Below are positions 30,088 to 51,300 of a stretch of DNA of 64,000 nt, one piece after another. The DNA comes from a virus: the IMG/VR virus record IMGVR_UViG_3300008517_000034, positions 1-64,000 of that record; one strand, 5' to 3'. The notes below the pieces were generated by a model, which was given only the letters and a program-made list of their open reading frames with translations, searched no databases and was not told the DNA's origin. Within the stretch, counting starts at the first letter, position 1. Each line of letters opens with the position of its first letter. Both the position numbers and the translations under genes were made by a program.

Positions 30088-31386
30088 TTAGCCATGAATA
30101 ACGTTTACCAAGATTACGGCTGCCTCTGGGTTTTCCACTGCTATGTCTATCTTCAGGTTGTAGAAAACATATTGGGCCTGGTCTTCTGGTGCACGCTTGC
30201 TCTCTAAGGTCAGCTCCTTCTGGATGCCGATGATGAAATTGCTCTTAGGAGTTAAAATAACATCGCCACATACATTCCCACCTAATTTACCGTCTGCGGT
30301 GGTAGTATCTACTGTTTCACTGACAGTTATGGTAGTGGTAGTGTCCGCATAGGCTGAGCTTACAACGGTATAAACTCCATTATTTTTTGCGCTTCCCGAA
30401 ACTATTATCTTTAAACCTGCAGTAAATTCCGCTGTAAAGTCACCGGCTATATCAAAGGTCGATGCAGTAACAGCTATAATATTATGTAGTGTTCCGGTCA
30501 CATCGTAATCTTCCTTCCCGTTAAGGGTTCCTTCAACTACCTCGTAAGTTACAGGCATAAGAGGAACTGACGCAATAGGAACAGTTCTATAAGGTAGATC
30601 TTCTTCGCCTAAGAGAGCCTTGTCTCCTAAGATAGTTGCTCGATTAGCTAAGGCCTCGGCATAATCATTGGGAATGATATCGTTGCAGAAGAATCTTAGG
30701 TTTTTCAGTCCCACTAATTTATACTTGGAAGGCATAACCGCCAGCATCTTGGCAAACTTAAATTCCCAGTCCGTGGTTGTCCCGATTTTTTCGGCTATCT
30801 TACCAGCTGTTGAAAAGTCATTTTCATGCCCAGCTAAGGTATTGGAAGCATCCAGAAGAGTTGCTGCTTTCGGGAAAACCCCAGTCTTGGCTTGTTCGAC
30901 TAAAAGTTTGTATCTAAAACCTTTCCACAGGCTTCTTATATCCGTATCGGCAAATCCATCATGGGAGCAGTAGGCCGCCTCATCTATCTCGTTGGCTACC
31001 TTCTTGGCTATTATCTTCATCAGGTGATCCGCAAAGGCCTGTCCCTCGATGCCTTCTTCCAGGTCGTCATCATAAACGACTACCGCACCCCGCACTTTCT
31101 GTGCATGTAAGGTAACCTTGCCTTCTGCAAACTCTTTTAGGTAGTCTGAAGCAGCAAATTTATTTGCCGGTTTTAAGAACCTGGTTCCAGCCTTAAACCC
31201 CAGATACCTTAAGTTCTTCTCGACCTTTTCCATTTTCACTATCCGGGCATTGTTCTTCCAGAAGGATTCATCCACTACGTAATCGATAAATTTATCGGCC
31301 TCTTCTGGAAGCAATTCGATATCCGGTAAAGCCTTCATGGCTTTCATAAAGTTCTTCTTATTCAGTAATGCTTTATTAGTTATCAT
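30088..31386 (-). CDS. Major capsid protein (HK97 fold) with inserted beta domain
   Basis: L.PEEADKFI, LEE.IEG..F...L, NFIIG...E....E and Y....D..VE..EA motifs; follows the scaffold gene. Confidence 0.85.
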   Translation of the reverse strand: MITNKALLNKKNFMKAMKALPDIELLPEEADKFIDYVVDESFWKNNARIVKMEKVEKNLRYLGFKAGTRFLKPANKFAASDYLKEFAEGKVTLHAQKVRGAVVVYDDDLEEGIEGQAFADHLMKIIAKKVANEIDEAAYCSHDGFADTDIRSLWKGFRYKLLVEQAKTGVFPKAATLLDASNTLAGHENDFSTAGKIAEKIGTTTDWEFKFAKMLAVMPSKYKLVGLKNLRFFCNDIIPNDYAEALANRATILGDKALLGEEDLPYRTVPIASVPLMPVTYEVVEGTLNGKEDYDVTGTLHNIIAVTASTFDIAGDFTAEFTAGLKIIVSGSAKNNGVYTVVSSAYADTTTTITVSETVDTTTADGKLGGNVCGDVILTPKSNFIIGIQKELTLESKRAPEDQAQYVFYNLKIDIAVENPEAAVILVNVIHG

Positions 31387-31417: not shown

Positions 31418-32296
31418 TTATTCTTCTGTTACTATTTCAAAGTCGAAAGAAGGCCACGGTTTATCACTTTTCTTGACGTCTCCATCGTCTTCATCCTGAC
31501 CCTCTATCTGTTTCTTAGTTCCCTTGGCTTTTTCCAAAGTCTCCAGCCTCTTAGTTAGTTCAGATATGCTCTTATCCTTTCCTTCCAAATCCTTTCCCAG
31601 TTTTTCTATGGTCTCGGTGGCATCTTTTATAGCGCTATCAAACTTTTCATCTCGTTCTTTTTCCTTATCGGCTCTTTCTTTTTCCTCATCAGTCTTCTTA
31701 AGAGCTTTCCTCTCTTCTTCAGAAAGAAGATCAGAAAGGATAGAAATAGCCTTTTTGGTCTCATCTCCCTTAGAAAAAACGTCATTAAGTATTTTGATAG
31801 CCTTTTTAATCGCCTCCAGAGTGTCCTTAGAAATCTTCTTTCCCGCCTTTTCCATTGCTTCTTGGACAGCCTTATCGAAATCTTCTTCGCTCTTTTTAGC
31901 AGGGTAGGGATAGGGGTAGGGTTTAGCAGCATATTTAGCCAGTAATGCCACGGCATCCTGTAAATCTTTTGAGAAATCACCTTTGTATTTATTTAAAATA
32001 TTCAGTGCACCTTTGATGGCATTAATGGCCTCGGGAGTAAGCTTCTTCAAAAGCTCAATCTGCTCCTCAGCAAAATTCTCTTGGTCATTGGTTAAACTTT
32101 TATAAATTTCTATCAGTTCGTTCATCTCGAGTTTTCCCTCCTTAATTAAATTTTCGATATCAGAATTATCCTGATCCTTATCAGAGGTCTTCTGCATATC
32201 TTTGTCTTTTTTAATAATTAGAAATTTTCGTTTTATCGCCGGAATATCAACCAGACTAATTTCGTCCACATCGATATCTATAAGTTGCCTCGGCAT
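31418..32296 (-). CDS. Capsid scaffolding protein with N-terminal protease-tail motif
   Basis: N-terminal EISLVDIPA; acidic coiled coil; YPYPYP linker. Confidence 0.75.
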   Translation of the reverse strand: MPRQLIDIDVDEISLVDIPAIKRKFLIIKKDKDMQKTSDKDQDNSDIENLIKEGKLEMNELIEIYKSLTNDQENFAEEQIELLKKLTPEAINAIKGALNILNKYKGDFSKDLQDAVALLAKYAAKPYPYPYPAKKSEEDFDKAVQEAMEKAGKKISKDTLEAIKKAIKILNDVFSKGDETKKAISILSDLLSEEERKALKKTDEEKERADKEKERDEKFDSAIKDATETIEKLGKDLEGKDKSISELTKRLETLEKAKGTKKQIEGQDEDDGDVKKSDKPWPSFDFEIVTEE

Positions 32297-32334
32297 CTAA
32301 ATCACCTTCCTATTGACTAGGTGTCCGCAAAAAC

Positions 32335-32394
32335 AAAAAAAAAGCGGACGCCCAAGCCAAAATATTTTTCAATTTATCAGCTTAAGCGTCCGCT
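32335..32394 (-). terminator. Long hairpin + U-tract (attenuator/terminator) upstream of scaffold
   Basis: AGCGGACGCTTAAGCTGA...TTGGCTTGGGCGTCCGCT followed by T8. Confidence 0.65.
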
Positions 32395-32442
32395 AAACGA
32401 ACCTTAACTTACTAAACTTGCTTAAATATTAGATTTTAAAAT

Positions 32443-32494
32443 AAAAAAAGGCACTTCAAACTTTCTAATAATTTTAGAAAAGCTTAAAGCGCCT
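32443..32494 (-). terminator. Second long hairpin + U-tract
   Basis: AGGCGCTTTAAGCTTTTCTAA-AATTA-TTAGAAAGTTTGAAGTGCCT followed by T6. Confidence 0.65.
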
Positions 32495-32551
32495 CGCTTT
32501 AACTTCTGAACATTATCTGATTTCACAAGCCGTATTTTATTTTCCGTAATT

Positions 32552-32580
32552 ATAATACTAAATTATCTTTATTTTGTCAA
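32552..32580 (-). promoter_or_regulatory. Sigma70-type promoter (TTGACA-17-TATTAT)
   Basis: TTGACAAAATAAAGATAATTTAGTATTATAAT. Confidence 0.65.
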
Positions 32581-32592
32581 ATAGTTTTGTAA

Positions 32593-33699
32593 TTAAGAGG
32601 GGGAGCTCGCCCTCCCGGCGATGCTGAAACCGGTTAGCTCTCCTTTTAACACCCTTTCCCAAATATCTTTATTTTCCTTATCTCCTAGATAGACAGCAAT
32701 CCACCAATCTCCTTTTTCCAAAAGATTATTGGGAGACGTGCCACCTTTATGATGCTGTTCCTCTACAAAATAATTCTCTATAATTGGGATTTCTCTTTCT
32801 TTACCCTCGTGCATCACTTTAAGTTTCTTTTTTTTGAGCATAAAACGCTTTAGAGCCTTCCAGACTTCCGGAGGCGTGGTCCAATCCGCCTGCGAATCCG
32901 TTTTATAACTAAAATAGACTACTCCGCCGACTATATGCTCTACTTTATCGATCTTCTTAAAAGTGAATTTAGCTATTTCTTGCCCATCCTTAATTATCTT
33001 TTTTCGCCTCTCATCCCATTCTTTAACTTCTTTCTCTGCCGGCGGTTTAGACTTCATATACTTTCTGGCCTCCCGGTAGCATCCCCAGTAGCTGGTCTTG
33101 TATCCTTTATCCCCGATTTTGGGAGATATCACAGGAAAATAGACTGAGCGAAGGGCGTCAACTATTGCTGCATAGTATTTTAGGGCATCCTCTAATTTCC
33201 ACTCTCCCCATTTCTTATCCTCTTTAAGTTTGGGATACCCTGAGTTCCCGATGTATCTTAAGTCGGCAAATAATTCCTTGTGTCTTACTGTAGGATTTTT
33301 AAGATCATCGTCTATTCCTTCGGCTTTAAACTGTTCAAGGTCAAGCTTTCCAAACTCCTCTTTAATAAAATTTTTAATCTTCCCGGCTAGACTATTCCAC
33401 CATTCTTCCCAGTCCTTATCCCCTAATTTTATTTTGCCTGCTACTACTATTCTTAATCTACCTTCCCGGCCAGTATCATATTTAGAATACAATCCTTCCA
33501 TTTCGTTTAACTTATTACTTATAGCCTGAACTTTGCAATCGTCTTTCGGATCTTTCATTCTAAATACTACAAAGGCAACTCTCTCGGCAGAATGTCCGAT
33601 ATCAGTAGCTCTTATTTCTATTTCTGGTATACTGTTTAAATCTTCTAGCCAAGTGTCTTTAAATTCTTTATCTATTTCGATACAATTTATTTTAGGCAT
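32593..33699 (-). CDS. xkdF: XkdF-like prohead serine protease with N-terminal accessory domains
   Basis: C-terminal IV.GVVY...DSQ.D...MH...IIE.Y...G.W......IW..V.KGELTGFSIAG. Confidence 0.8.
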   Translation of the reverse strand: MPKINCIEIDKEFKDTWLEDLNSIPEIEIRATDIGHSAERVAFVVFRMKDPKDDCKVQAISNKLNEMEGLYSKYDTGREGRLRIVVAGKIKLGDKDWEEWWNSLAGKIKNFIKEEFGKLDLEQFKAEGIDDDLKNPTVRHKELFADLRYIGNSGYPKLKEDKKWGEWKLEDALKYYAAIVDALRSVYFPVISPKIGDKGYKTSYWGCYREARKYMKSKPPAEKEVKEWDERRKKIIKDGQEIAKFTFKKIDKVEHIVGGVVYFSYKTDSQADWTTPPEVWKALKRFMLKKKKLKVMHEGKEREIPIIENYFVEEQHHKGGTSPNNLLEKGDWWIAVYLGDKENKDIWERVLKGELTGFSIAGRASSPS

Positions 33700-34444
33700 A
33701 ATGAAATTCCTTTAGCTTAGATTCGAGACTATTCAAATTTATTAATTCTGATTCCCAAATAATTAAAGTATCAAATCCATACCTTTTAAAATATTCGATA
33801 CGTTCTTTCGAAGTTTGTATTTTAGGAAAATATTTATGGTTATGCCAATAGCCTCCAAATAATTCAATCAACTTTTTTTTACCATTAATATTCATAAAAT
33901 CTGGGGATCTGCCTCCTAATACAAATGAGAAATCACCTACAAATTTATATTCATTTGGAAATAATCTATGAAGAATCCTATCTAGTGTTTGTTCTTGGTT
34001 ATTGGGACGCTTTTTTAAACCCTTTTGCAATTTTTTAATATAATCGGAATCAAGATACTTTTCCTTCATTAACTCAGAGAAGCCTATGCCTCGACATTGA
34101 TTTGAACAATATTTATGAGTATTTTTATTAAATTGTGGAGTCATAAATTCTTTACCACATATTTCATAAGTCCTCTTTATTCTATTATAAGTACAATTTA
34201 AATGAGTTCGTTTTACCCATTTTCCTTTACATTTTTTAGAACAAAAGAGTCTTTCTCTTCTCTTTGCCTCACTAGGATAAATTTTATATTCTTTCCCACA
34301 TTCCAAACAAATTTTTTTAATTTTTTGCTTTTCTTGGGCTTTATTTTTACATTTTTTGGAGCAATATTTGCCTCTATTATTTTGCAATTTATAAGGATAA
34401 ATTTGAAAAGCTTTCCCACAGAATTGACATTTAACAGTGACCAT
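33692..34444 (-). CDS. Zn-ribbon repeat + Vsr-like PD-(D/E)xK homing-type endonuclease
   Basis: C..CGK.F / (Y/F)CS..C repeats; SPDF...IELFGGYWH. Confidence 0.8.
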   Translation of the reverse strand: MVTVKCQFCGKAFQIYPYKLQNNRGKYCSKKCKNKAQEKQKIKKICLECGKEYKIYPSEAKRRERLFCSKKCKGKWVKRTHLNCTYNRIKRTYEICGKEFMTPQFNKNTHKYCSNQCRGIGFSELMKEKYLDSDYIKKLQKGLKKRPNNQEQTLDRILHRLFPNEYKFVGDFSFVLGGRSPDFMNINGKKKLIELFGGYWHNHKYFPKIQTSKERIEYFKRYGFDTLIIWESELINLNSLESKLKEFHYA

Positions 34445-36248
34445 GTTTTTTGACCGTTATGGCCCTCCCATTTATTATATTATAGCACCAAATCCTTTTG
34501 GGTGAATCGGTTCTACCGCTTAAAAATTCTTTTGGCATTTCTCCATATACACTCAAGTAGGCGAAAGTAGGGCTGTTCACCCATTCTTTATAGAATTCTA
34601 CTTTTAATTCAGCCCAGATATTTGGATTCCTGTTATCCCCAAATTTCTTGGCTGCTATTCCATCTTTTACTTCTTTAACAGAAATTATTTCACCTTTACC
34701 ATCACCACTTGTAGCCCATTCTTCAAAATGCTCTTTACAAAACCAAGCATGACCTATTCCCTCAGCCCATATACACTCATAAACAGGAGGATTATTACAT
34801 TCCATACACTTTTCTCTACTATGTTTAGATTTTTTAATCTGGATATTTTTCTCCCGGGCAAATTCTTTTGCCAGTCTTAAAATCTCAGATGCAGCAATAT
34901 CCTCTAATTCTCCAGAGTCCCGGTCCGCTTTATTATGCACGATCACATACTCTCTAAATTCCTCTATATTAAATTTAGGATGTTCCTTAACAAATTTAGA
35001 GAAGTGCCCACTCCCAAAATCACAAAATTCCTCATAGCCTTCTTCTTTATAAAACTCTTCGGCAAACTCCGGTTCGTTCATCTCTCTAATCTCCTGTGGC
35101 TGATGGGGCACTAAAACTAAATTCCAGCCGGTCTGGTATCTCCAGTTGGGCCCGAAAGTCGATCCCAGCCATTCTGGAGTTAACCATTTTCCGGACATCT
35201 TTCCCACTCTCTGCTCCAAGATTCTATCTATCTTTAGTCTTAAAGATTTATCTAGAGCTATCGTAAATCTACCGTCTTCTTCTTTTGCTCTGACTATGAT
35301 ATCGATATCATTAGGCTTCCGATTGCCCTCCCTCTCGTAAAAGAGAGACCCGGCAATGTTTATAAACTCAGGGATCCACACGAAGGAAGGAAGTTCTTCA
35401 ATTAAAACTTCATCGCTTTTTGATAAATAGATGTTTTCTTTCTTGAGTGGGAAATTAGAAATAAGGAGTTCTCTCCTGAATTCTTGTGTCCCTTCGGTAT
35501 TAGAAAAGCTTTGTAATACCTTAACTTTTTTTAGATGAAAATCTTTAAATGCTTTATTAATTGCTTTAACATCATTAAGAGAAAGTATAAATTTCCCTTT
35601 TATTTTTTTACAAAAATCATGAAGTTCTATTAAACTAATATTACCACCAATTGTTTTATTCTCAGTATCAGGATAGGGTGGGTCCAGATAATAAAAGGTT
35701 TCTTTAGAATCATAATTAATACTTTCTTTATAATCGTTATTCTTTATCTTTACATTTTTTAATCTTTCTTTTATGTTGGGGAGTGCAGAAGTACAGTCAG
35801 CTTCTTGACCTTCAAAGGAACTAACATAATTTTTAAATCTTGAAAATCTCATCATATATGAGAATCTATAAAATCGTTCTAAATTATTTTCGGGTTTATT
35901 TTTTTTAAGGTTCTCAAAATGACTTTTGCTCCCTACCCAATTTTTCTTTTTTAGCTTTTTCAAATCCTCATCACTAATTTTTTTTATAAACCTATAAGCA
36001 AAAGCGATCTCTTTATCCAAATCATTTATCACTTCAACCTCACTTGGTTCTTTGGCAAAAAATACTGCACCACCTCCCATAAAATTCTCTACATAAGTCT
36101 TATGTTCTGGGATATAACTGACAATAGTTTTAGCTAGATATCTTTTACCACCAGGAGAGCCAAAGCCGGGTCTGATTCCTTTTTCTAAATCTTCAGAATA
36201 TTCTTCTTCTCCTTGTTTTGTTAATTCTTTTATTTCTTCTAGTTCCAT
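34431..36248 (-). CDS. Multidomain protein: Dam/D12-class adenine MTase + nucleotidyltransferase-like + zinc finger
   Basis: GGKRYLA, ENFMGGGAVFF, INDLD, YLDPPY; IAGS...DIDIIVR; CMEC...WFCKEH. Confidence 0.85.
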   Translation of the reverse strand: MELEEIKELTKQGEEEYSEDLEKGIRPGFGSPGGKRYLAKTIVSYIPEHKTYVENFMGGGAVFFAKEPSEVEVINDLDKEIAFAYRFIKKISDEDLKKLKKKNWVGSKSHFENLKKNKPENNLERFYRFSYMMRFSRFKNYVSSFEGQEADCTSALPNIKERLKNVKIKNNDYKESINYDSKETFYYLDPPYPDTENKTIGGNISLIELHDFCKKIKGKFILSLNDVKAINKAFKDFHLKKVKVLQSFSNTEGTQEFRRELLISNFPLKKENIYLSKSDEVLIEELPSFVWIPEFINIAGSLFYEREGNRKPNDIDIIVRAKEEDGRFTIALDKSLRLKIDRILEQRVGKMSGKWLTPEWLGSTFGPNWRYQTGWNLVLVPHQPQEIREMNEPEFAEEFYKEEGYEEFCDFGSGHFSKFVKEHPKFNIEEFREYVIVHNKADRDSGELEDIAASEILRLAKEFAREKNIQIKKSKHSREKCMECNNPPVYECIWAEGIGHAWFCKEHFEEWATSGDGKGEIISVKEVKDGIAAKKFGDNRNPNIWAELKVEFYKEWVNSPTFAYLSVYGEMPKEFLSGRTDSPKRIWCYNIINGRAITVKKHGHC

Positions 36249-36265
36249 TTAAATCACCTCTTAAA

Positions 36266-37000
36266 TTATGATTCTAGATATTGGAGTTCCCCAGTATAAG
36301 AAAGGAACTTAATTTGAAGAGGAGAAAATCCATTTTCATTTTCTCTTCTGAAATGTTTTAATTCTTCCTCTGCCTTCATATGAGAAGATCGTGTAAGAGT
36401 AATAAGATAAGAATCAAGATTTTTTCGAATTTTATACCAAGGAATAATATGATGATTGCATAAATTATCTATTTTCCTAGTTAAAAAACATTTATATCCA
36501 TCTCTTTCTAAAATTCTTTTTCTGGCTTCTTCCCATTCTCTAGTATGACGAAAATCATAACCTGTCCACCGACAATGATTTTTTCCTCTATTAAATTCAT
36601 GATAACATTTTAACGAACAAAATTGCTTGTTATAATATTTTATCCTGCTCTTTCTTCGTTCAATTTTTTTTCCGCAATTAAAACAAATGACTTTAATCCA
36701 ATTATTTTTCTGCTTAGACTGGTAATAACATCTAAATGAACAAAACTCTGCCGTTCCTTTCCTGCAAGGGGAGACATAAAACTTCTTTCCACAAGTAAGA
36801 CATCTTTTGGGTATTTTTTTAGATATAGCTCTTATTATCTTTTTATAATGGACTTCCTTCCTAACTTTAAGTCCGAGAGAGCAAGCCTTTCCGTAGATAG
36901 AACTTCTAGTATATTTCTTCAATAGAGGCTTAATTTCTGGACCTTTATCGCTGTATTCTCTTCTTAATAAATTTTCATCTTCTTCCGGCCATCTCCTCAT
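36266..37000 (-). CDS. HNH homing-type endonuclease with Zn-ribbon repeats
   Basis: FCS..C repeats; ILERDGYKC...HHIIP...LITL...H. Confidence 0.8.
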   Translation of the reverse strand: MRRWPEEDENLLRREYSDKGPEIKPLLKKYTRSSIYGKACSLGLKVRKEVHYKKIIRAISKKIPKRCLTCGKKFYVSPCRKGTAEFCSFRCYYQSKQKNNWIKVICFNCGKKIERRKSRIKYYNKQFCSLKCYHEFNRGKNHCRWTGYDFRHTREWEEARKRILERDGYKCFLTRKIDNLCNHHIIPWYKIRKNLDSYLITLTRSSHMKAEEELKHFRRENENGFSPLQIKFLSYTGELQYLES

Positions 37001-40000
37001 TTATATGCCTCTCTTCCAAATTGTTTAACTTCATTTGCGGGAACTGGGTAATAACTACCTTTCTGTGCTTTATGTTCAATTGGGTCCATAGGTAAAGGAT
37101 TATCACTGCATTTCCAGAACCACCATCTATTATTCTTTCCCGCCTTAAAACACCTAATAATGTATCTCCCGTTTAATATTTCTTTATCTTTACATCTATC
37201 AGGATAAAAAAAGTATTCGTGTACGTCTTCTCTTTGTACACCAGCTTTTACCTTTCCAAGATAGACAGCTTGCATGAAGGCATCTTTATAAGCAGTTGCC
37301 CCTACTTCTCCAGCTTTTATGATATATGATTTATCAAGAAGTGCGAGATCGGCTACTATTTTTGCTCCTTTAGCATTTAGTAATGCCTCTTTTACTTCCG
37401 ATTTTTTCAATTCTCTAGTAGGTTCCTCTGCACTAGGTTTAACAATACAGAGTCCTTTATCTACATTACCAGTTTTTGGATCTCTTTTTCCCTTTAAGGC
37501 ATTCAAATAAGCATCGATTGAATCTTCAGTTAGGACCCATTGAATAAGTTTATTCTTAAATTTCATTCTGATATCACAATGCATACTATGATCCTCTAAT
37601 AGTTTAGCAAGAGATATTTTTTTCTGTTTCCATTGTTTAGTCTCATTCGGTTCTAATCCTCTAAAGTGGAATTGAGCCCACATCATTCCCTCATCATAAT
37701 CCGGATAAAATTCTTTAGGTAGTGGTTCATTTTCCTTGGCGTATATCTTATATATTTCTTTGGGAATCTTCCCTCCCTCTATGCTTATCTTAATATCATC
37801 TTTAATTCCCTTTTCCACTAGGGCCTCTCTCCGTGGAGTGAACTCAGAAAGCCTCTCCAATACAAACATTTTGTCCGGTACATTCTTTTCCGGAACCGGT
37901 TGTAATACTACACTCACATAAGCTTTATAATAGGGGTATTTAGGATCTTCAGTCTCGTAGCTATTGACATCTTCGCTGGCTACTCTTAGTATCGAACCTA
38001 TCACTACATCCTGTTTCGTATTATCCGACTTCCCTATATGGTTATAAAACTTCTCCCTAAATTCTATTACTGCCTTCTTATCTTTTCTGCTTATGGCCTC
38101 TGCCCACTCTTTATCAATGGGTCCCACAGCTAATTCGTAATTCCAATTCCCGGTCTTCTTTCCTTCTCTGATAATTTCCTTTTCCCCCACTACCAGGCAA
38201 TCAATCTCGTACTTCTCCTTCCATTTGCAAGCACCATGGTCTTGAGGCATTTCGTAGGGGGTGTTGAGTAATTTAATCATTACTCCCTCGGCAATATGTT
38301 TGGGATAAGGACCACCTCTATGGGCATAGCCCATCATCTTATCTTTAACCTTTTCAACTTGCTTAAGATCCTCTAAATCCACAATATAAGATAAGGCTTC
38401 TTTCTGTAAATTAGTTGAACTTCTAACAAAATGAACGTGCTCAGAATCTTTGAATTTGCTGAGCAGTTCCTTACGCTCTTTTAGAGGCCAATCTTTGATA
38501 TTTTTCCCATCATATTCCACAATATCAAAAATGTAAATATGAGCTTTCTTACTAGCCTCGGTGGGGTCGAACTTCCCGTTTAAAAGTGCATTAGTGACTA
38601 CCCTGTGTAAGCATTCATTCTTTTCCTTATCAATCATTATTATTTCAGAATCCCCCACAAAATCTTCCTTCATCTTCTTAAGCTCTTCTACCTGCCAGGG
38701 TAGTCTCTCGGTCTTGATGGGAGAGCCTTTAATATCCTCTGGATCACTCATTATAATTACATCTTTGCCCTTCTTTACAATTTTCGTCCTCATTCCATCA
38801 AACTTGGCTTCGACAATTGCTTTTCCTTTCTGAAAATGGGGAGTATTTTTAAGGTCCTCAAAGGTAAATATTCGATAGGCCGGTTTATTTAAGCCCCATT
38901 TTTCTCTCTTCTCAAAATCCTTCTCTTCTAAGATATCACCATCATATAAGATCTTACCATTCCATATCTTAAGCCCGGCATTAACCTTCTCTTTATGCTT
39001 TAAAATATCCTTTCTTAAATTAGTGAGATATATTACCTTCGGTTTCAATTCCTCTGCTAATTGCAGGAGAGAGAGAAAAGAAAGTTTCCCTCTTTCTCTG
39101 TCATCCTTTTCATAATCTCCTACTCCACAAATCCAGATAGTCCCTTGTATCAGGTCTTTCTGTGCCTTCCCTAATTCTAAGAACTCGGGCAAGATCGATA
39201 TCTTCTTTTTTCCTACATCTAATCTCAAACCTATAGAAGGTGTCCCGACTGCCGGGGTAGTCTTGATCGGTATAATCCCCAAGCCATCAATCTTTAGTGG
39301 TTTTAAGAATAGATGCGTATCTTCCCTCTTGGGTAGCCGGTCAAATATTGCTCCTACAGTATAGACCGGGATATCCTTATATTCATTAAGATATTCCCAG
39401 TGGTCCTTATCGGCTTGAGTTATAATTATAAAGTCTAAATCCTCTTTTACCTCTTTCTGGTGTACTGCTGGGTCGATAAGAATCCTTTTATCTTTGTGAC
39501 GTATAAGCAGAGAGAAGTGTTTGCCCTGTGGGGAATTAAGCTGGGCCATGGTGCCGAGGACCTGGATAAAACCGGTCTTCGGTATATCATCTTTCTTTCT
39601 TACTATCTCAATCTTCTCCTTAGGCCTTAGCACTTTTTCAAATAGTGGGATGCATGAATCCCATTCAGTCAGATCATAAATAAAATTCAGCTTCTTATTT
39701 ATCTGTTTCTCGAAAAGTTTAGTAATTGCTGATTCTAACTTTGGATTCTGCTCATCCCTAATAAGTATATTTATATCCGGTTGGTCTCTTAGGGATTTCT
39801 TCGAATCTCTTACAATACTAATATATTCAGGATCGAGCATTATCGAACCTAAACTGGACATATCTATTCCCAATTCTTCTTTCTTAAACACTATATCGTC
39901 TATGCTGGTCTCAACATGATTTATTTTTCTCTTATGCATCTCCCTGACCAGCAATTGATACTTCCCGAGAAAATCACCTCTTTTGACATCTAATTTAGGT

Positions 40001-40122
40001 TTCGGTTTCTCAAAATATTTTTCCCATAGCTGTGAAAAGCGTAGGTCCAGAGAATACAGTTCTATATTAGGTGCTTTCCTCAGGTTTAATTTTGTCATCT
40101 CTTCTATTCTCAATATTTTCAC
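36997..40122 (-). CDS. Multidomain ATP-dependent DNA ligase (degenerate NTase + degenerate MBL + ligase + LigD-type phosphoesterase)
   Basis: EAKFDG, DSEI, IFDIV, EGVMIK, KWK ligase motifs; VLGT..ILIDP..ITQADKDH MBL fold; QFH...HCDIRM..W phosphoesterase-like. Confidence 0.85.
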   Translation of the reverse strand: MKILRIEEMTKLNLRKAPNIELYSLDLRFSQLWEKYFEKPKPKLDVKRGDFLGKYQLLVREMHKRKINHVETSIDDIVFKKEELGIDMSSLGSIMLDPEYISIVRDSKKSLRDQPDINILIRDEQNPKLESAITKLFEKQINKKLNFIYDLTEWDSCIPLFEKVLRPKEKIEIVRKKDDIPKTGFIQVLGTMAQLNSPQGKHFSLLIRHKDKRILIDPAVHQKEVKEDLDFIIITQADKDHWEYLNEYKDIPVYTVGAIFDRLPKREDTHLFLKPLKIDGLGIIPIKTTPAVGTPSIGLRLDVGKKKISILPEFLELGKAQKDLIQGTIWICGVGDYEKDDRERGKLSFLSLLQLAEELKPKVIYLTNLRKDILKHKEKVNAGLKIWNGKILYDGDILEEKDFEKREKWGLNKPAYRIFTFEDLKNTPHFQKGKAIVEAKFDGMRTKIVKKGKDVIIMSDPEDIKGSPIKTERLPWQVEELKKMKEDFVGDSEIIMIDKEKNECLHRVVTNALLNGKFDPTEASKKAHIYIFDIVEYDGKNIKDWPLKERKELLSKFKDSEHVHFVRSSTNLQKEALSYIVDLEDLKQVEKVKDKMMGYAHRGGPYPKHIAEGVMIKLLNTPYEMPQDHGACKWKEKYEIDCLVVGEKEIIREGKKTGNWNYELAVGPIDKEWAEAISRKDKKAVIEFREKFYNHIGKSDNTKQDVVIGSILRVASEDVNSYETEDPKYPYYKAYVSVVLQPVPEKNVPDKMFVLERLSEFTPRREALVEKGIKDDIKISIEGGKIPKEIYKIYAKENEPLPKEFYPDYDEGMMWAQFHFRGLEPNETKQWKQKKISLAKLLEDHSMHCDIRMKFKNKLIQWVLTEDSIDAYLNALKGKRDPKTGNVDKGLCIVKPSAEEPTRELKKSEVKEALLNAKGAKIVADLALLDKSYIIKAGEVGATAYKDAFMQAVYLGKVKAGVQREDVHEYFFYPDRCKDKEILNGRYIIRCFKAGKNNRWWFWKCSDNPLPMDPIEHKAQKGSYYPVPANEVKQFGREAYK

Positions 40123-40198
40123 CTACTTATTTTTAATATATTATACCAAATCTGGTATACTAGTTAGCTTTTAATATTAATACATTTTAATTTGTTAT

Positions 40199-40429
40199 TC
40201 AATAAATTCTACCCTTTATGAATTTAGGCCTATCGGTTATCTTTATTATATATCCGCCGAGTTCCTTAACTGTTTCTTTGGCAACTGCTAGATCTGGGAA
40301 AGGAGAATAGTCCGTAAGAATGTCTCTAGAAAATACCGATAGCATATCTTTCAAAAATTTATCTTTACATTCCCACTTATTGTCTTTTATACTGGCCTGA
40401 ACTCCTTCTATCTCCACAGTCACAGCCAT
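40199..40429 (-). CDS. Small protein coupled to MuF gene (candidate immunity/partner)
   Basis: TAATG stop/start overlap with the MuF gene. Confidence 0.5.
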   Translation of the reverse strand: MAVTVEIEGVQASIKDNKWECKDKFLKDMLSVFSRDILTDYSPFPDLAVAKETVKELGGYIIKITDRPKFIKGRIY

Positions 40430-42192
40430 TAATATATCCCCCTTACTAGGTTATAAATAAAATCAAAATATCCTGGGTCCTTGGTAGCCAATCTATAAGG
40501 ATTTTTATAGAACTCTCCCAGCCCCATACTTAATATTTCACTCGCCTTTCCTTCGTAATCTTTTCCCATATAAGCATCGATAAACTTATCTTTTCTAGTA
40601 AGTTCATCTGCTCCATATCCGTCCAACAGACGGGCCAAGCTTTCTCCTTCAGTTCGCTTTTTATAAAAGGCCATAATTGATTTATGTGCCTTTGGATTCA
40701 TTTCTTCCAGCCAATGTCCCATTTCATGGACAACTACCTTGGTGTCTTTATAATTTATCGCGGGATTCCCGATATAAATCGAACCCCTTTGATAATATGA
40801 CCTAAGTCCGGTTTTTCCGACTCGAGGGAATGATACCCCCATAGCCTCTTTGTCAATAAGCTTACTAAATTCTCTTATTCCATTTCTGAGGAACGTCTTC
40901 TCCTTTTCTCTTACCCCAACAGCCCATTCTGGATACAGGTTAAAACCTTCATCAGAGACCTGCAACATCTTCCTCATCTTTATAGTATCTCTTACCCTGA
41001 TGAAATCTTCCTTAGCTCTACTCTTCATATACAGGTCTTTATATTTTTCTGCCGAATCAGATAGCCCAAGTCTTCTAAATTCGAGTGACCTCTTTTGGTA
41101 TCTGTAAGACTGACGCTCAAGTCCAGCAAGTTCTTCAATTGAATCTTTATGGATCTTCTCGATTCCTGACCTTATTCCCTTAGGAGTTTTAGGTTTCTTT
41201 GGTACTGGTTTCCTCGGGATACCCGGTTTCGGCTTTTTTACCCTGGGAATCACTACGATCCAATGACAACGACAATTAGGATGTACCGGAAGCCTCCCTC
41301 TGGCCTCAGACCTTTTAAATTTTATTCCTGCCAAATCCAGACATTCGGGACAGGCATCTCCAGCTGAAGAGATCTCCACCTCTTCATACCGGGTTCCCTC
41401 TAATGAATCTAAATAGCCTTCATTTACACTCCTTGATATTTCGGTCCTAGCTATTAGTTTACTCCGATCTCTAAGTAGTCTATCATAACGTTTAGTATAC
41501 TTTTGTAGGTATAATTCTTTGGGGAGCTTCTGTGCCTTTAACGCTCTTCTATATTTCAGTAAGGCTGTACTCTGTCTCCCATTTAGCCCCACGTCTTTTA
41601 AATGCTCTATATCCCTTGCTACCTGAGTAAGTGTCTTCCCTTCCTTCAATCCTTGAGACACTATTCTCCGGATTCCTTTTTTTGTCTCCTTTTCCACCAG
41701 TGAGATTAATTCATAAGAATATTTCTCGGCCCATTCCACCGATCGGGGATTTATCACATCAAAGGAAGCTTCTATTCTAGCGTGTGCTCGGGACAGGTTG
41801 CCAGATTTCTCCATTATATTAAGATAGGCCGGTTTAATTATGCTCTTTCCACTACCCTCTATTGTCTCCCAGTCCACATAATCTACTACTATCTCAGGCT
41901 TGGACTTCTTCCTGATCTCTGCTGGACCTTTACCTGAAATATAGATAAGTGAGGAACTCACCGGAAGATTTCCTAGTTCTGTCCTCTTCCTAAGGATTTT
42001 CTTTTTTATATCTTTTATGATCTGTTCCCGGGCACCTTGCAGCCAGTCTCTTATCTTGGGATATAGATAGGCCTCACACTCATCCATCAATTTAAGTGTT
42101 TGCTTTCTTAACCTCTCCTTTCGACCTACCTTTTCAAAGAATACATCTAGGAGTCTATTTAATTCTTCTAGGGTATCGCTGGTTAATGGCAT
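40429..42192 (-). CDS. MuF/gp7 minor head protein with C-terminal HEXXH metallopeptidase-like domain
   Basis: IARTE...C..C...PVHPNCRC; Pro/Lys linker; VVHEMGH...SEILSMG. Confidence 0.85.
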   Translation of the reverse strand: MPLTSDTLEELNRLLDVFFEKVGRKERLRKQTLKLMDECEAYLYPKIRDWLQGAREQIIKDIKKKILRKRTELGNLPVSSSLIYISGKGPAEIRKKSKPEIVVDYVDWETIEGSGKSIIKPAYLNIMEKSGNLSRAHARIEASFDVINPRSVEWAEKYSYELISLVEKETKKGIRRIVSQGLKEGKTLTQVARDIEHLKDVGLNGRQSTALLKYRRALKAQKLPKELYLQKYTKRYDRLLRDRSKLIARTEISRSVNEGYLDSLEGTRYEEVEISSAGDACPECLDLAGIKFKRSEARGRLPVHPNCRCHWIVVIPRVKKPKPGIPRKPVPKKPKTPKGIRSGIEKIHKDSIEELAGLERQSYRYQKRSLEFRRLGLSDSAEKYKDLYMKSRAKEDFIRVRDTIKMRKMLQVSDEGFNLYPEWAVGVREKEKTFLRNGIREFSKLIDKEAMGVSFPRVGKTGLRSYYQRGSIYIGNPAINYKDTKVVVHEMGHWLEEMNPKAHKSIMAFYKKRTEGESLARLLDGYGADELTRKDKFIDAYMGKDYEGKASEILSMGLGEFYKNPYRLATKDPGYFDFIYNLVRGIY

Positions 42193-42541: not shown

Positions 42542-44032
42542 TTATTCCTCTAACTTTCCTTCGTCTTTCCCTACTTCTTTAAGAAAATCACCTTCGGCTA
42601 ATTTGTTAATTCCTTCTGTGAGATCTTCCACCGCCTTGATAAATTTGTCTTCCCTCTTCTCCAGCTCTTCTTCTCCTACTACTTCCAGACCACTCTTCAT
42701 GTAATAATTGTCTCCTCCCACATAAGTCTTCCCCAGACCTAATTTATTTCTGGCCTGGTTGGGGGTCATCATCGCATGTTCGATATACTTAATATACCTA
42801 TCCCCTTCCGCATCTATATTTCGAACGTCTAAGGTATTGAGTTTGAATATATATTTATGGCAATCTAGGCCTTGCTCGATAATCGGTCCATTAATGATAT
42901 CTTCCATATCCTTCTGTAAGGGCTCTATCACCGATTCAATATATATCTTAGTCGCTTCTGTGGTTATGCTACCCCCACCTAGCTTTCCTACCCTTGACCT
43001 GACTCCAATCCGTTCTCCGGGCATAGAATAGGCAATAAGTATATCTTCTTGCAAGGATTCCCTGTATAGCCTGAAGCTCCCTTCTTTTACGTCTACGGAT
43101 AGCTGCTGCCATTGAAATTTGGCATTCTCATCGGGAAGCTGAAATACCATAGTCCGATGGGCATTTTCGGAACCCCTAATTTCGTTATCCAAAAAATTCT
43201 TGATCTTCTTTGCTGATCCTTCTTTCCAGTCTCCAATTAAAGTAATTAAGGCCGCAGGAACTCCGTAGTTTTCAAAGAAGGATAAATTATAATCCCTAAT
43301 CCCGATAAGTCCAACCAGGGAACCCACTGCTGATAGTATGGGAGGAGCTCCATAATAATCTGATCTCGGATAGTATCTTTTGTAGTAGATTAACTCACTT
43401 GCTCTACTCTTTAAGTCAAGCTTGGTTTCCTTTCCATCCTCTGGAGAGATATCTTTTTCCTCTCCATATCTTTTAAACCATATCTTGTCATTATTCCTCT
43501 GTTGACAAAACTTCTTCTTCTTTTTATGGATCCTAAAAGTATGTCCGGCAATATGCCATATCTCTGCTACTTCCCCTCCGGCATTTCTGACTATTTCAAA
43601 TCCGCCCCAGCCTATTATTCCTACATCAATAAGCATCTCTTTTAATATATGTCTTAAATACTCTTCCGGATTGGGTCTGTCTAAGAGTTCATTAATCTTC
43701 TTTTTCTCATCTTCATCCTCTTCTTCTCCCTCTTTTAACTCCAGCCTCCACCCCAGTCCGGCTACATCTTCGGCTATCTGGTCTACGCAAGCGCTAAAGG
43801 TCGAATTCATATCGTATAACTGGAGTAGACTGTTAGGAGAATTGGGAGGAGCAACCAATTGATTAATTCCAAATTGTTCTTCTTCTTTAATCTGTTTGGA
43901 AGTCTTTTTAACTTCGTATCTCTTTAGATCTGATAGGGGATAAACCCCTTTAGTGGTCTGAATAAATTGCTGCCCTTTGGTAAGGGTAACGTGAACCTCA
44001 GCCTGCTTTTTTTTCTTTATTGCTTCAGTCAT
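42542..44032 (-). CDS. Portal protein (PBSX/HK97-like)
   Basis: YYG.PP, N..FFEN.GVP, TPNQAR..LGL motifs; follows the terminase. Confidence 0.9.
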   Translation of the reverse strand: MTEAIKKKKQAEVHVTLTKGQQFIQTTKGVYPLSDLKRYEVKKTSKQIKEEEQFGINQLVAPPNSPNSLLQLYDMNSTFSACVDQIAEDVAGLGWRLELKEGEEEDEDEKKKINELLDRPNPEEYLRHILKEMLIDVGIIGWGGFEIVRNAGGEVAEIWHIAGHTFRIHKKKKKFCQQRNNDKIWFKRYGEEKDISPEDGKETKLDLKSRASELIYYKRYYPRSDYYGAPPILSAVGSLVGLIGIRDYNLSFFENYGVPAALITLIGDWKEGSAKKIKNFLDNEIRGSENAHRTMVFQLPDENAKFQWQQLSVDVKEGSFRLYRESLQEDILIAYSMPGERIGVRSRVGKLGGGSITTEATKIYIESVIEPLQKDMEDIINGPIIEQGLDCHKYIFKLNTLDVRNIDAEGDRYIKYIEHAMMTPNQARNKLGLGKTYVGGDNYYMKSGLEVVGEEELEKREDKFIKAVEDLTEGINKLAEGDFLKEVGKDEGKLEE

Positions 44033-44059: not shown

Positions 44060-45526
44060 TTAAAAGAAAGCCTCCGCCTGCTTATGTTTTTTCTTTCCTG
44101 AGCAGGTGTTGGCCACCGCATCCCCATAATCCGGGGATCGACCCAACCTCTTTTTAATCTTATCCTTCTCTTCGATTATGATGTCTCCATTGCTTCTGGT
44201 GCTCCAATGCACCTCGGTTAAATCCTGGGTCAGCTCATCTACAGGAGGTAAAGCCAACTTTTCATCAAATGCCGGGTCTAAAGCATCTCTTAAAGCCCAG
44301 TATAAATAGGCCCTCATATTGGCAAAGGTTCTCTGCTCGGTCAGATCAGTTAACCCTTTCGCTGATTCCGAGGCCTTAACCCCCACCGCATTAACCTTAA
44401 GTTCTATCAATCTTGAAAAGACTCCCGCCCCTTCTCCTGCTGAATCTATATAGGTGATATCCTCTTTCTTTATTAGTTCATTCTTTGCTCTTCCTACGGT
44501 TACCATGTGATCTTGCTTGCTATAAACTTTAAGTTTTTCAATAATGTTCCCTCTCCTAAAAGCAAATACCGTAAGGTCCCTCCCCATGCCGGCTACATCG
44601 ACTCCTAATTTTAAGGCACCTTTTTCTTTACCCTTTTGTTCCCGCCACCTGTCGTTGGCCATCTCTACCCAACTTAAAGGAATTAAGGTATCTTCGGCAG
44701 CCCTAGGAAACTCTCCCATCACCTTTACTAAGAATAAGTCATTAGGCCGGTACCATTTTCCTTCCCACTTAAAATCGCGGGTGTCTTTTCTTACTTCATT
44801 TTCCTCTATCTCTACTACCCAGCCCGGCTTCTTAATTTTCTCATCGATCCATTCATAATCTACCTGGCCTGGTATTAGGATTTTCTTGGCCCTAACGTTT
44901 ACCGCATTCAAACAATTTAGTTTAAATTTTTCATACTGTGGGCTCCTGGTGCTTTGATAGGCCTCTCCGGTAGTCCTGTTGGGGTTGAATATCAAGACTA
45001 ATCGGCTATTCCCGGTTAGTATCCCTTCTATAGCATCAAACGTTGCCTGGTCTATCCCGGAGGCCTCGGTAATTACTACCATAAGATTGGGAGAATGGAA
45101 ACCAGTCCAGTCTTCCGGCTTCTTATCTTTAGTTTTAAAACCCAATAAAAACCAGTCTAAATCCTTGGGGAAAGTTATTTTATGAGTCCACAGGTCTCCA
45201 CCAAGATTTATATTGGCATTTCTATATATTCTGCCTATCTCAGACATCATAATAGAAATAACTTGTCTATCGGTGGGTGCGGTGTTGATAACCTTAGAAG
45301 GGACATAATGATATAAAAAACATAAAGAAGCAACTGCAGCTACATAGTCTTTCCCAGCTGCATGGCCTGACCTGACCGATACTCTCCTACTAAGTTGTAT
45401 TGACTCTAATATCTTTCTCTGTTTCCGGTCCAGCCTCACCCCCAAAGCATCTCTAGAAAATTTATTCCAGTTATTTTCATATTCAGTTAATATCGCATCT
45501 TCTTGCTCTGCGGAAAGGTACTTCAC
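44060..45526 (-). CDS. terL: Terminase large subunit
   Basis: VRSGHAAGKD Walker A, VITEASG Walker B, GVDVAG.G.D and SPDYGDA nuclease motifs. Confidence 0.92.
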   Translation of the reverse strand: MKYLSAEQEDAILTEYENNWNKFSRDALGVRLDRKQRKILESIQLSRRVSVRSGHAAGKDYVAAVASLCFLYHYVPSKVINTAPTDRQVISIMMSEIGRIYRNANINLGGDLWTHKITFPKDLDWFLLGFKTKDKKPEDWTGFHSPNLMVVITEASGIDQATFDAIEGILTGNSRLVLIFNPNRTTGEAYQSTRSPQYEKFKLNCLNAVNVRAKKILIPGQVDYEWIDEKIKKPGWVVEIEENEVRKDTRDFKWEGKWYRPNDLFLVKVMGEFPRAAEDTLIPLSWVEMANDRWREQKGKEKGALKLGVDVAGMGRDLTVFAFRRGNIIEKLKVYSKQDHMVTVGRAKNELIKKEDITYIDSAGEGAGVFSRLIELKVNAVGVKASESAKGLTDLTEQRTFANMRAYLYWALRDALDPAFDEKLALPPVDELTQDLTEVHWSTRSNGDIIIEEKDKIKKRLGRSPDYGDAVANTCSGKKKHKQAEAFF

Positions 45527-45528: not shown

Positions 45529-45891
45529 TTATTTATTTTTCTCCCGTTCCTTTTTGGCTTTCACTAAATTAGCATAGGTAAGTTCTAATGAACCTCCTAT
45601 CTCATGTTTGGTAGTTTCCTTCCATTTATCCGGAGCTCGGTTACAAAGAAAAAACTTCTGAGCTGCTAAACTCCCTTCTACCGCTATTTTGTATAATGCA
45701 TCTTCTACTACTCCTATCTGGCTCTCTACCGCTTCTTCGACATCCCTTTTAAAGCTTTTTGCAATCTTCATCCATCTATAAAAAGTATCTCTATTAATAT
45801 TAGCTTCGGTACACGCCTTAGTTTTAGTTGCCCCATTTCTAAGGCTTTCGATAATAATTCGTTTTATTTTTCTTCTTGCTTTGTCATCCAT
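45529..45891 (-). CDS. terS: Terminase small subunit (HTH)
   Basis: AC..A.I.R.TFYRW, VEDALY..A..G...A..F.L.NR motifs; precedes terL. Confidence 0.8.
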   Translation of the reverse strand: MDDKARRKIKRIIIESLRNGATKTKACTEANINRDTFYRWMKIAKSFKRDVEEAVESQIGVVEDALYKIAVEGSLAAQKFFLCNRAPDKWKETTKHEIGGSLELTYANLVKAKKEREKNK

Positions 45892-47297: not shown

Positions 47298-47311
47298 TTT
47301 TCCCCTCTCCT

Positions 47312-49735: not shown

Positions 49736-49761
49736 TAAAAAATGCCTTAAACGAATAATAT

Positions 49762-51165: not shown

Positions 51166-51170
51166 TAAAT

Positions 51171-51225
51171 AAAAAAAGCCTAAACTCCCTTAAATTATTC
51201 TTCAATAATTCTAAAGAGCTTAGGC
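51171..51225 (-). terminator. Long hairpin + U-tract immediately upstream of the MTase cluster
   Basis: GCCTAAGCTCTTTAGAATTATT-GAAG-AATAATTTAAGGGAGTTTAGGC followed by T7. Confidence 0.65.
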
Positions 51226-51271
51226 CAAAACCTAACTTTTCAGACATTATATTATTTAATTTTCTTATTAA

Positions 51272-51300
51272 ATTTTATCAAATTAAGTGATTTCTGTCAA
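51272..51300 (-). promoter_or_regulatory. Sigma70-type promoter (TTGACA-17-TAAAAT)
   Basis: TTGACAGAAATCACTTAATTTGATAAAAT. Confidence 0.65.

Follow-up and report, generated by a model that had tools for sequence, protein, structure and literature searches.

A ligase, a phosphoesterase and an adenine methyltransferase predicted in a phage head module: candidate cargo anchored to the prohead protease

Why would a phage keep predicted enzymes of DNA repair and methylation among the genes that build its head? The question is raised by the IMG/VR virus record IMGVR_UViG_3300008517_000034, which comprises 75.9 kb (~70% complete according to CheckV) and of which we analyzed the first 64 kb, here called the window. 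All genes of the window lie on the minus strand (G+C, ~37%). In the direction of transcription, four methylase genes and a radical-SAM gene are followed by TerS, TerL, the portal, an open reading frame (ORF) of 64 amino acids (aa), a MuF head-morphogenesis protein, a 76-aa ORF, a chain with a DNA ligase (ligase chain), a 244-aa HNH-like gene, a chain that begins with a Dam methylase (Dam chain), a 250-aa endonuclease-like gene, a 368-aa protein with an XkdF protease, a leader, the scaffold and the major capsid protein (MCP). An earlier note on this DNA had seen four large ORFs in about 9.6 kb of this region, for the MuF, ligase, Dam and XkdF proteins, and had read them as polyproteins that are cleaved by the prohead protease and injected with the DNA, where they would seal breaks and protect the incoming genome by methylation from restriction or CRISPR nucleases. 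The four ORFs lie where it had placed them, on the minus strand, and its domain calls are correct, but its account of the gene content left out the 76-aa, 244-aa and 250-aa ORFs.

Our best explanation, to which we give a probability of roughly one half, is that the stretch encodes a fragmented form of capsid-protease-anchored "polyvalent" cargo, which would be loaded by way of the protease and the scaffold, cut at Lys-containing junctions and ejected with the DNA. It starts from the architecture and synteny of the locus, the folds and catalytic motifs of its proteins and the enrichment of a motif at module junctions, all observed here; from these we infer packaging, a cleavage specificity, ejection and a role in the cell. 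The chains concerned are built as follows.

Positions 36997-40122, minus strand: ligase chain of 1041 aa, with a metallo-beta-lactamase (MBL)-like domain, an ATP-dependent DNA ligase and a LigD-type 3'-phosphoesterase (PE).
Positions 39583-40122, minus strand: residues 1-180 of the ligase chain, an N-terminal helical leader and a degenerate copy of a small nucleotidyltransferase (NTase)-like domain, seen by comparison with relatives.
Positions 38917-39582, minus strand: residues 181-402, MBL-like domain with a degenerate metal motif (weak match to PF13483, E 4e-4, below the cut-off).
Positions 37807-38916, minus strand: residues 403-772, ATP-dependent DNA ligase with adenylation and oligonucleotide-binding (OB) domains (PF01068, E 1.9e-16).
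Positions 36997-37806, minus strand: residues 773-1041, LigD-type 3'-phosphoesterase, assigned by an AlphaFold (AF2) model and fold comparison.
Positions 34431-36248, minus strand: Dam chain of 605 aa, with Dam, a small NTase and a zinc finger.
Positions 35415-36248, minus strand: residues 1-278 of the Dam chain, D12-class N6-adenine DNA methyltransferase (PF02086, E 5.3e-20, 72.6 bits; phrog_56, E 1.8e-48).
Positions 35049-35414, minus strand: residues 279-400, small Pol-beta-type NTase-like domain that ends in an invariant FYK (motif alignment).
Positions 34488-35048, minus strand: residues 401-587, an acidic linker, a Cys/His zinc module and the first 32 residues of a module called XN (WVNSPTF...PKRIW), from alignments.
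Positions 32593-33699, minus strand: 368-aa XkdF protein, with the remainder of XN (residues 1-112), a helical module called Xhel (113-238) and the XkdF protease (239-368).

A search for homologues of the ligase chain among 5.8 billion proteins found 46, all of them metagenomic and some with inteins, and a profile scan of viral contigs, in which modules were mapped by phmmer, gave 39 loci; the sources of these relatives are subsurface and sediment metagenomes. In this family, a small NTase, Dam, the MBL-like domain, the ATP-dependent DNA ligase, the LigD-type PE, the zinc module, XN and Xhel are strung in one or two chains, which end in the phage's only prohead protease and lie between portal/MuF and scaffold/capsid. 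The order portal-MuF-ligase-XkdF-MCP, for which the earlier note had proposed a survey of synteny, recurs in at least 39 related loci. The ligase and NTase-...-XkdF chains keep their place there down to ~35-45% identity and persist across different terminase, portal, protease and capsid families. In lineage 1, the arrangement is portal-(MuF)-ligase chain-[(Dam)-NTase-(ZnF)-(XN)-(Xhel)-(ASCH-like)-XkdF]-scaffold-MCP, and the smallest protease protein consists of NTase and XkdF (278 aa). In lineage 2, the terminase, portal and capsid genes belong to different families and the protease is a Peptidase_S78; behind the portal come two small ORFs, then MBL-Xhel-LIG, PE, protease and MCP. In lineage 3, an S78 protease follows Dam-LIG and LIG-NTase ORFs.

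Furthermore, enzymes and protease occur in one and the same chain. In lineage 3, locus L036 combines the C-terminal half of the ligase, the NTase and Peptidase_S78 in a single 1233-aa ORF. A search with Xhel and XkdF found at least 12 cluster representatives that carry a PF01068 ligase and a PF14550 XkdF domain in one chain. One giant, P0071 (1824 aa), reads ligN-NTase-Dam-MBL-LIG-PE-XN-Xhel-XkdF, with an ASCH-like stretch before XkdF; a scan of viral contigs with P0071 returned nothing. In L044, L045 and L047, such a chain is the sole gene between MuF and scaffold (TerL-portal-MuF-[chain]-scaffold-MCP). Dam, NTase-like, Xhel and ASCH-like modules shuffle between "ligase" and "protease" chains; a Dam domain lies inside the ligase chain in 3 of the 46 homologues, and Xhel is also found inside ligase chains of other lineages. 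Because relatives hold all of its modules in one chain, we read the window as a fragmented protease-anchored polyprotein, and these fusions argue strongly for a tie between the enzymes and the prohead protease. The polyprotein proposed in the earlier note is thus borne out in relatives, where the modules share a chain with the prohead protease, but not in the window itself, where the ligase and Dam chains are unlinked.

The ligase of lineage 3 (L023-L025, L039, L040 and L036) extends over two consecutive ORFs, one with Dam and the first part of the ligase and one with the rest and the NTase. This may reflect a natural split, a frameshift site or an artefact of sequencing.

The tie to the protease also bears on an explanation that needs no virion. 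In a late cytoplasmic maturation of the DNA, ligase and PE would seal nicks in concatemers that would otherwise stall the terminase, Dam would methylate the progeny, and the head operon would merely set timing and dosage, with protease fusion reflecting polyprotein processing or co-regulation. We regard this as rather unlikely. Methylase genes commonly adjoin packaging genes, and four consecutive DNA methyltransferase genes with a radical-SAM gene lie upstream of TerS here (45960-52722, minus strand); the ligase chain and the Dam chain each stand alone in this phage, and split forms are tolerated. Also, the genes from portal to XkdF form one unit, from which scaffold and MCP are set apart by a promoter-like site of their own and terminator-like hairpins. 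However, timing leaves unexplained why enzymes are repeatedly fused to a C-terminal prohead protease, in three head-gene lineages and in constant order. The prohead proteases of the HK97 and T4 systems are active within the procapsid, and a tether to such a protease would bring a cytoplasmic enzyme no gain.

The breaks in the string are visible by comparison with uninterrupted relatives. From Dam to XkdF, there is a single ORF in L003 (1051 aa) and in L002 (907 aa), to the halves of which the 605-aa and 368-aa proteins of the window align, and phrog_13242 holds Dam and XkdF within one family. DNA homology to L003 ends after a Trp codon at 34488 and restarts at ~33688-33679, with ~800 nucleotides (nt) in between. 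The break point lies inside XN: WVNSPTF...PKRIW closes the Dam chain, and the segment WxNSPTxAY...RGRT always accompanies XN in relatives. The interrupting features are the following.

Positions 36266-37000, minus strand: free-standing 244-aa gene for a zinc-finger and HNH endonuclease-like protein (phrog_1271, E 1.7e-18; phrog_8446; phrog_589, HNH endonuclease).
Positions 33688-34487, minus strand: endonuclease cassette that splits XN, delimited by DNA alignment with the uninterrupted L003 gene and by protein alignment.
Positions 33692-34444, minus strand: 250-aa ORF for a zinc-finger and DUF559/Vsr-like endonuclease (zf-FCS, E 3e-6; phrog_1271; phrog_559).

Since the 250-aa endonuclease gene interrupts the Dam-to-XkdF ORF, the 368-aa XkdF protein is the product of a downstream half-gene; the earlier note had recognized the ORF and its XkdF domain but had described it as a protease with extra N-terminal domains. 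The DUF559 label of the 250-aa ORF rests on its homologue in L006, which matches DUF559 with 31 bits (cut-off, 20.6) and has FCS zinc fingers; a PDB search with the 250-aa protein gave nothing. The ORF is preceded by a promoter-like site with an extended -10 (34506-34479) and has a ribosome-binding site (RBS), and at the 3' end of the cassette its last codons overlap the new ATG of the downstream half. L002 lacks the 244-aa gene, and 12 nt separate its ligase ORF from its Dam ORF. The ORF list of L004 leaves no room for a gene of this type between ligase and Dam, and in L003 the border is a gap of ~730 nt with a 102-aa ORF.

A group I intron or an intein at the Dam/XkdF break was considered and rejected: outside the 250-aa ORF, the insert has only ~45 nt on the upstream side and 4-13 nt on the downstream side, and the ORF is equipped with a promoter-like site, an RBS, a start and a stop of its own, in another frame. 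Rfam at E <= 1 detected no intron at the break, and neither insertion is explained by an intron or intein. As in homing-endonuclease genes, an ORF of an endonuclease family with its own signals occupies a site that is uninterrupted in close relatives. Both genes are predicted to be of the homing-endonuclease type, mobility and cleavage included, and on this prediction it is they that broke the string, once between the ligase and Dam chains and once inside XN. A known gene in pieces is nrdA of Aeromonas phage Aeh1, which is split by mobE, a free-standing homing endonuclease gene. The window is similar in that an endonuclease gene with its own signals lies inside a coding region and two ORFs together correspond to the intact gene of relatives, but the gene split here is a head-protease polyprotein. 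The window would be natural evidence that such a polyprotein tolerates fragmentation by homing endonucleases, once between modules and once within one. Reassembly of the two XN pieces might hold the Dam chain and the protease chain together.

A 325-aa homologue of the 250-aa endonuclease (zf-FCS and DUF559) is encoded in L006 at 14073-15050, between the protease and scaffold genes; this different place fits the mobility of such genes within the head module. Inteins (LAGLIDADG/Hint) interrupt PE, ligase, MuF and XN of different relatives (L002, 2829-7031; L006, 5316-7241 and 11536-14139; also the proteins P0003, P0004, P0038 and P0044). The intein site in XN (RAS/CEGHS, insertion at the slash) may mark a functionally important site of this module.

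Could the whole set be "morons", accessory or mobile genes inserted at a permissive place in the head module and unconnected to head assembly? In favour, two ORFs are mobile-type endonuclease genes that are missing at these positions in the intact L002 and L003, inteins are frequent in the family, and the C-terminal domains of MuF vary. However, the ligase and NTase-...-XkdF chains hold their place in the at least 39 loci and at the low identities given above, alongside different head-gene families, and their catalytic motifs are invariant. We consider this explanation highly improbable.

Ligase, PE, Dam and XkdF retain conserved active-site motifs, and all four are predicted from sequences and models to be intact enzymes. 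The ligase has EAKFDG as motif I and matches human LIG1 structures at E 1.4e-5; motifs I, III, IV and V are unchanged across 18 homologues, in which K440, D442, G443, R445, E612, G613, K617, K633 and K635 are invariant. The last 269 residues of the chain had no sequence match in Pfam or PDB, and a PDB profile search with the PE alignment was unhelpful. An AF2 model of this domain, built from 18 sequences, reached a pLDDT (per-residue model confidence) of 87.7. The best six Foldseek matches were all LigD PE structures, and VIA-align superposed the model on 3P43 with Z 10.1 and a root mean square deviation (rmsd) of 2.8 A over 119/124 residues, against Z 4.0 for the next unrelated fold. The PE alignment conserves QxHxRG...HSxHxDxR, which fits the metal and phosphate site of a PE, and the homologue P0079 carries PF13298 (LigD_N).

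The N-terminal part of the ligase chain is less well preserved in places. Its first ~60-90 residues are kept in lineage-1 chains, whatever comes next, and the region of the NTase-like remnant is an intact GS...DxD NTase in the fused giants. In the MBL-like domain, the alignment shows TQADKDH in place of HxHxDH, whereas in relatives PF12706/PF13483 score above the cut-off, with a canonical SHRHIDH, and distant relatives keep the motif; the domain of this phage may be inactive.

A ligase joined to a PE recalls LigD of bacterial and archaeal non-homologous end joining (NHEJ; POL-PE-LIG with Ku), in which an ATP-dependent ligase is likewise joined to a PE fold with a His/Asp/Arg motif. The KxDG ligase and the PE are both present here. 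No primase-polymerase (POL) match was obtained for the ligase chain in Pfam or PHROG, and Ku (PF02735) was absent from the 75.9-kb record, itself ~70% complete, while a control genome was positive; Ku could come from the host. The ligase chain also differs from LigD in its order LIG-PE, in the MBL-like domain that stands in the place of POL and in its location in a head module. It resembles LigD minus POL in its working and is not a LigD.

In the Dam chain, the methyltransferase domain matches PDB entries 7M6B and 2DPM, and its translation contains NFMGGG (FxGxG) and LDPPYP (DPPY). In the NTase-like domain, G22-S23, D36 and D38 are invariant in 15 sequences, as in the GS...DxD signature of minimal Pol-beta nucleotidyltransferases. 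Among named ESM clusters, those of PF01909 (NTP_transf_2) come nearest (0.91-0.92), which is a lead only; there was no PDB sequence match, and this part of the AF2 model lies below pLDDT 50, so that the fold is unconfirmed.

The 368-aa protein is predicted to be an XkdF-type prohead serine protease. PF14550 (Peptidase_S78_2) matches residues 246-365 with E 1.5e-18 and 67.4 bits (cut-off, 24), and an alignment of 11 sequences shows no variation at a D, at the H of KVMH and at the S of GFS, of which H and S correspond to the assemblin-like catalytic site. Among 48,161 chains, the best match of the AF2 model was T4 gp21 (Z 7.6, rmsd 3.3 A, 114 residues), a middling score for a model with pLDDT 60-90 in the XkdF part. 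The gene lies directly upstream of the scaffold and MCP genes, and no protease family other than XkdF was found between portal and MCP, save the HExxH domain of MuF. XN and Xhel matched nothing in Pfam at E <= 1 and gave no usable match in the ESM Atlas. A search of cultured phages with the XkdF domain gave four weak matches, none with a methyltransferase fusion.

Where might this protease cut? The earlier note had pointed to seven domain junctions that end in Lys (DLEK/G, YLSK/S, FEK/R, LVEK/G, MEK/A, VKK/S and FMK/A, with the slash at the junction), and all seven strings are present in the translations. Junctions were taken as the borders of adjacent phmmer-defined modules in related loci, 66 in total, and the motif hydrophobic-x-K was defined after looking at the sequences. 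It occurs in 62/66 junction windows (94%), compared with 42% of equal-sized windows inside modules, and in the majority of cases for 14/16 junction types. The controls hydrophobic-x-E (53 vs 43%, junction vs inside) and hydrophobic-x-R (14 vs 29%) were not enriched. The residue following the junction Lys is mostly Ala, Ser or Lys. Some junctions keep their form next to different neighbours: FYK closes the NTase domain in 11/11 and 15/15 sequences, F-x-K precedes LxLEEF of Xhel, V-E-K-G follows the OB domain of the ligase, and YLSK/YLAK follows Dam. The extension of the motif to the scaffold and the capsid leader, also suggested before, holds as well: phi-E-K-[AS]-G-[KR]-K is found in 10/10 scaffolds, and all capsid proteins have a conserved hydrophobic-x-K, ~20 residues from the N terminus. 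Hydrophobic-x-K is thus a reasonable and concrete candidate for the cleavage rule of XkdF proteases, a family that has been little studied.

The scaffold suggests how a protease chain could be brought into the head.

Positions 31418-32296, minus strand: scaffold of 292 aa (phrog_3017, C-terminal part).

Its N-terminal strand DEISLVDIPAIKRKF, the internal MEKAGKKIS and the C-terminal PWPSF are all conserved in 10 scaffolds and in the fused-giant loci, and no other part of the scaffold is as well conserved across lineages as the strand. In gp58 of Bacillus phage BMBtp14, a standard XkdF-scaffold fusion, the strand ITHISYVDKAANKKQFF, the XkdF domain and a scaffold with IEKAGRKVS form one chain. 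In the present family, XkdF ends the upstream polyprotein, and both the strand DEISLVDIPAIKRKF and EKAGKKIS are in the scaffold ORF. Because strand and XkdF share a chain in gp58 and the strand here sits in the scaffold, we suggest that the N-terminal strand of the scaffold may dock on XkdF in trans and so draw the polyprotein into the procapsid. Some scaffolds (L006, 15171-16136; L007, 10762-11730; L009, 7665-8690) have a CxxC...CxxC zinc-ribbon insertion directly after the strand motif.

Taken as cargo anchored to the capsid protease, the chains would be produced late, alongside the head proteins, and would enter the procapsid by their protease end, docked on the scaffold. The protease would then cleave them at the Lys-ending junctions, and the released enzymes would remain in the head and exit with the DNA. 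In the new cell, PE and ligase would repair breaks by end healing and sealing, or else close the ends of the genome, and the entering DNA would be methylated by Dam. A wider picture is tentative and, taken as a whole, more doubtful than probable: in tailed viruses of slow-growing sediment and subsurface hosts, the capsid would carry a LigD-like break-repair kit and a methylase, loaded as a polyprotein on the prohead protease, with the protease docked in trans on the scaffold strand. A genome with nicks and blocked ends from long dormancy, or cut on entry, would be mended by 3'-end cleaning and ligation before viral expression, and in this phage the split XN halves would rejoin the Dam and protease chains.

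Loading does not by itself require ejection. The enzymes could act in the head or portal and keep the packaged genome intact during dormancy, or process the genome ends. The protease fusions speak for this as much as for ejected cargo, the subsurface and sediment sources would suit it, and the ligase could be pre-adenylated. However, ATP (beyond the single turnover of a pre-adenylated ligase) and S-adenosylmethionine would be needed, neither of which is expected in a sealed capsid, and densely packed DNA would be a poor substrate. This reading is inference only, and we consider it quite improbable.

Several points weigh against cargo anchored to the protease in this phage. The ligase and Dam chains of the window are covalently joined to neither protease nor MuF; if loading requires fusion, they would not be loaded here, and their free-standing state weakens the case for loading by fusion. 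The protease chain is also split in L007, which implies that fusion is dispensable for whatever the modules do, and with four methylase genes upstream of the terminase, late cytoplasmic methylation is already covered. The MBL-like domain lacks its metal motif. As for the junctions, the ligase alignment has 14 conserved hydrophobic-x-K sites, of which only 2-3 lie at junctions. Junctions are rich in Lys (18.5% vs 10.7%), which alone predicts the motif in ~60% of the windows, and the junction sequences are related, so that counts are not independent. To our knowledge, no cleavage specificity has been reported for XkdF-type proteases. No cultured phage carries the ligase chain: a search of cultured phages with it gave three weak ligase matches only, with an unrelated context in ANMV-1.

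How does the proposed cargo compare with known systems? By function, the nearest tested systems appear to be the Dar proteins of phage P1 and the internal proteins and Alt of phage T4. The P1 Dar proteins (DarA, DarB, Hdf, DdrA/B and Ulx) are capsid-packaged anti-restriction proteins tied to head morphogenesis. The concept is alike, in that large enzymes (DarB with its methylase) are loaded into the head during assembly and protect injected DNA; however, the DarB methylase is paired with a helicase rather than with ligase and PE, and loading runs via DarA/Hdf instead of a prohead-protease fusion. The T4 internal proteins and Alt have a capsid-targeting sequence, are cleaved by the gp21 prohead protease and are injected with the DNA. 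The protease that trims this head-targeted cargo has the same class of fold as the XkdF model, and the cargo is retained and ejected. In T4, however, targeting relies on a short N-terminal peptide and the cut follows Glu (L/I-x-E), compared with protease-fused cargo and a candidate Lys site here, and the T4 cargo is without a ligase. There is no sign of sequence kinship with P1 Dar or T4 internal proteins/Alt, with no direct comparison made.

If the head does carry these enzymes, phages would enter the cell equipped for the repair of DNA breaks, by end cleaning and ligation, and with a methylase besides. The injected phage proteins that we know of are inhibitors, polymerases, ADP-ribosyltransferases and P1 Dar, and we know of no such repair or counter-defence strategy. 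The prohead protease would then be a general loading handle for large enzymes, with possible use in the delivery of cargo by engineered phage heads.

The general idea of injected polyprotein cargo is already known as the "polyvalent protein" concept. Polyvalent proteins of phages and conjugative elements are multidomain chains encoded beside packaging genes, with MuF, zincin-like metallopeptidase and N6A methylase domains as hubs and Pol-beta NTases among their domains, and are predicted to be packaged, processed and injected (Iyer et al. 2017, J Bacteriol, PMC5512222). The likeness lies in the many unrelated enzyme domains per chain beside portal-terminase packaging genes. Polyvalent chains have 2-15 disparate domains; this range covers the 1041-aa and 605-aa chains of the window and relatives with up to 10 modules/1824 aa. 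A neighbourhood of packaging or late genes is given by TerS-TerL-portal-MuF-...-XkdF-scaffold-MCP in at least 39 loci, and as hub domains there are MuF, HExxH, Dam and, at the C terminus, an assemblin-like peptidase (XkdF). By architecture and gene context, the present system therefore appears to belong to the polyvalent class, with the difference that here several ORFs share the string and endonuclease genes interrupt it. The text of PMC5512222 makes no mention of a DNA ligase, and the three uses of "ligase" read there concern RNA ligases. A full-text search of the literature for ligase in a polyvalent or virion-packaged context found nothing relevant, and no description of a ligase and phosphoesterase cargo.

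The remaining features of the region frame the chains on either side.

Positions 45529-45891, minus strand: TerS.
Positions 44060-45526, minus strand: TerL.
Positions 42542-44032, minus strand: portal of 496 aa, the upstream border of the module (PF04860, E 3e-34; phrog_12, E 2.5e-53).
Between portal and MuF, minus strand: 64-aa ORF.
Positions 40429-42192, minus strand: MuF head-morphogenesis protein of 587 aa with a variable C-terminal HExxH (zincin-like) domain (PF04233, 31.3 bits; cut-off, 29.6).
Positions 40199-40429, minus strand: 76-aa ORF between MuF and the ligase chain.
Positions 32297-32592, minus strand: leader of 296 nt in the gap between protease and scaffold, with a promoter-like site (TTGACA-17-TATTAT) followed by two terminator-like hairpins.
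Positions 30088-31386, minus strand: MCP of 432 aa, the downstream border (phrog_1623, E 4.7e-40).

The assignment of MuF follows from the PF04233 profile score above the cut-off and from the position of the gene after the portal. Its C-terminal domain contains the HExxH motif VVVHEMGHWLEE, read in the translation, and matches the minor-head families phrog_33618 (E 5.5e-34), phrog_19443 and phrog_115; the metallopeptidase label is based on this motif and these PHROG families only, and Pfam at E <= 1 had nothing for the C terminus. MuF proteins of L002-L004 have other C-terminal domains, including a zinc-finger protease of phrog_7153 and a weak ATLF match. Fusions of MuF to polymorphic toxins or other effectors were reportedly described by Jamet and colleagues in 2017. 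As in these fusions, the MuF C-terminal domain differs between close relatives, but here the variable domain is zincin-peptidase-like instead of a toxin and belongs to a larger set. PMC5512222 likewise describes MuF fusions.

The 76-aa ORF had no family match in Pfam, also at E <= 1, or in PHROG; ORFs of similar size occupy its position in L002 and L004, with no detectable sequence similarity. One of the four methyltransferases upstream of TerS (45960-52722) bears a ParB-like N-terminal domain, and with Dam the phage has at least five methylases. Of the 4-base palindromes in the window, GTAC and CTAG are avoided most, at 0.49 and 0.50 of the expected counts. The depletion of GATC is mild (167 observed vs 230 expected), so that many Dam-type sites remain.

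Rfam at gathering thresholds detected no family in the whole 64 kb and no hammerhead at 4222-4287 or 5427-5491, two places at which such ribozymes had been proposed. Among cultured phages, no near-identical DNA was found. The sole match of the host search was a 1.65-kb contig in a metagenome-assembled genome (MAG) of a WOR-3 bacterium (81% identical), and lineage-2 relatives bear archaeal MAG labels; both are unreliable as host labels.

The leader contains the best sigma-70-like site of the region and long hairpins with U-runs (RNA fold z-score, -5.5). L002 has the whole leader in conserved form, and L003 has a modified version. Antitermination or attenuation in this leader may separate the expression of scaffold and capsid from the upstream operon. 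The MCP has a Thr/Ala/Val-rich insertion of ~56 residues at positions ~300-360, which is absent from the 375-376-aa orthologues of L002 and L003 and may form a surface decoration loop.

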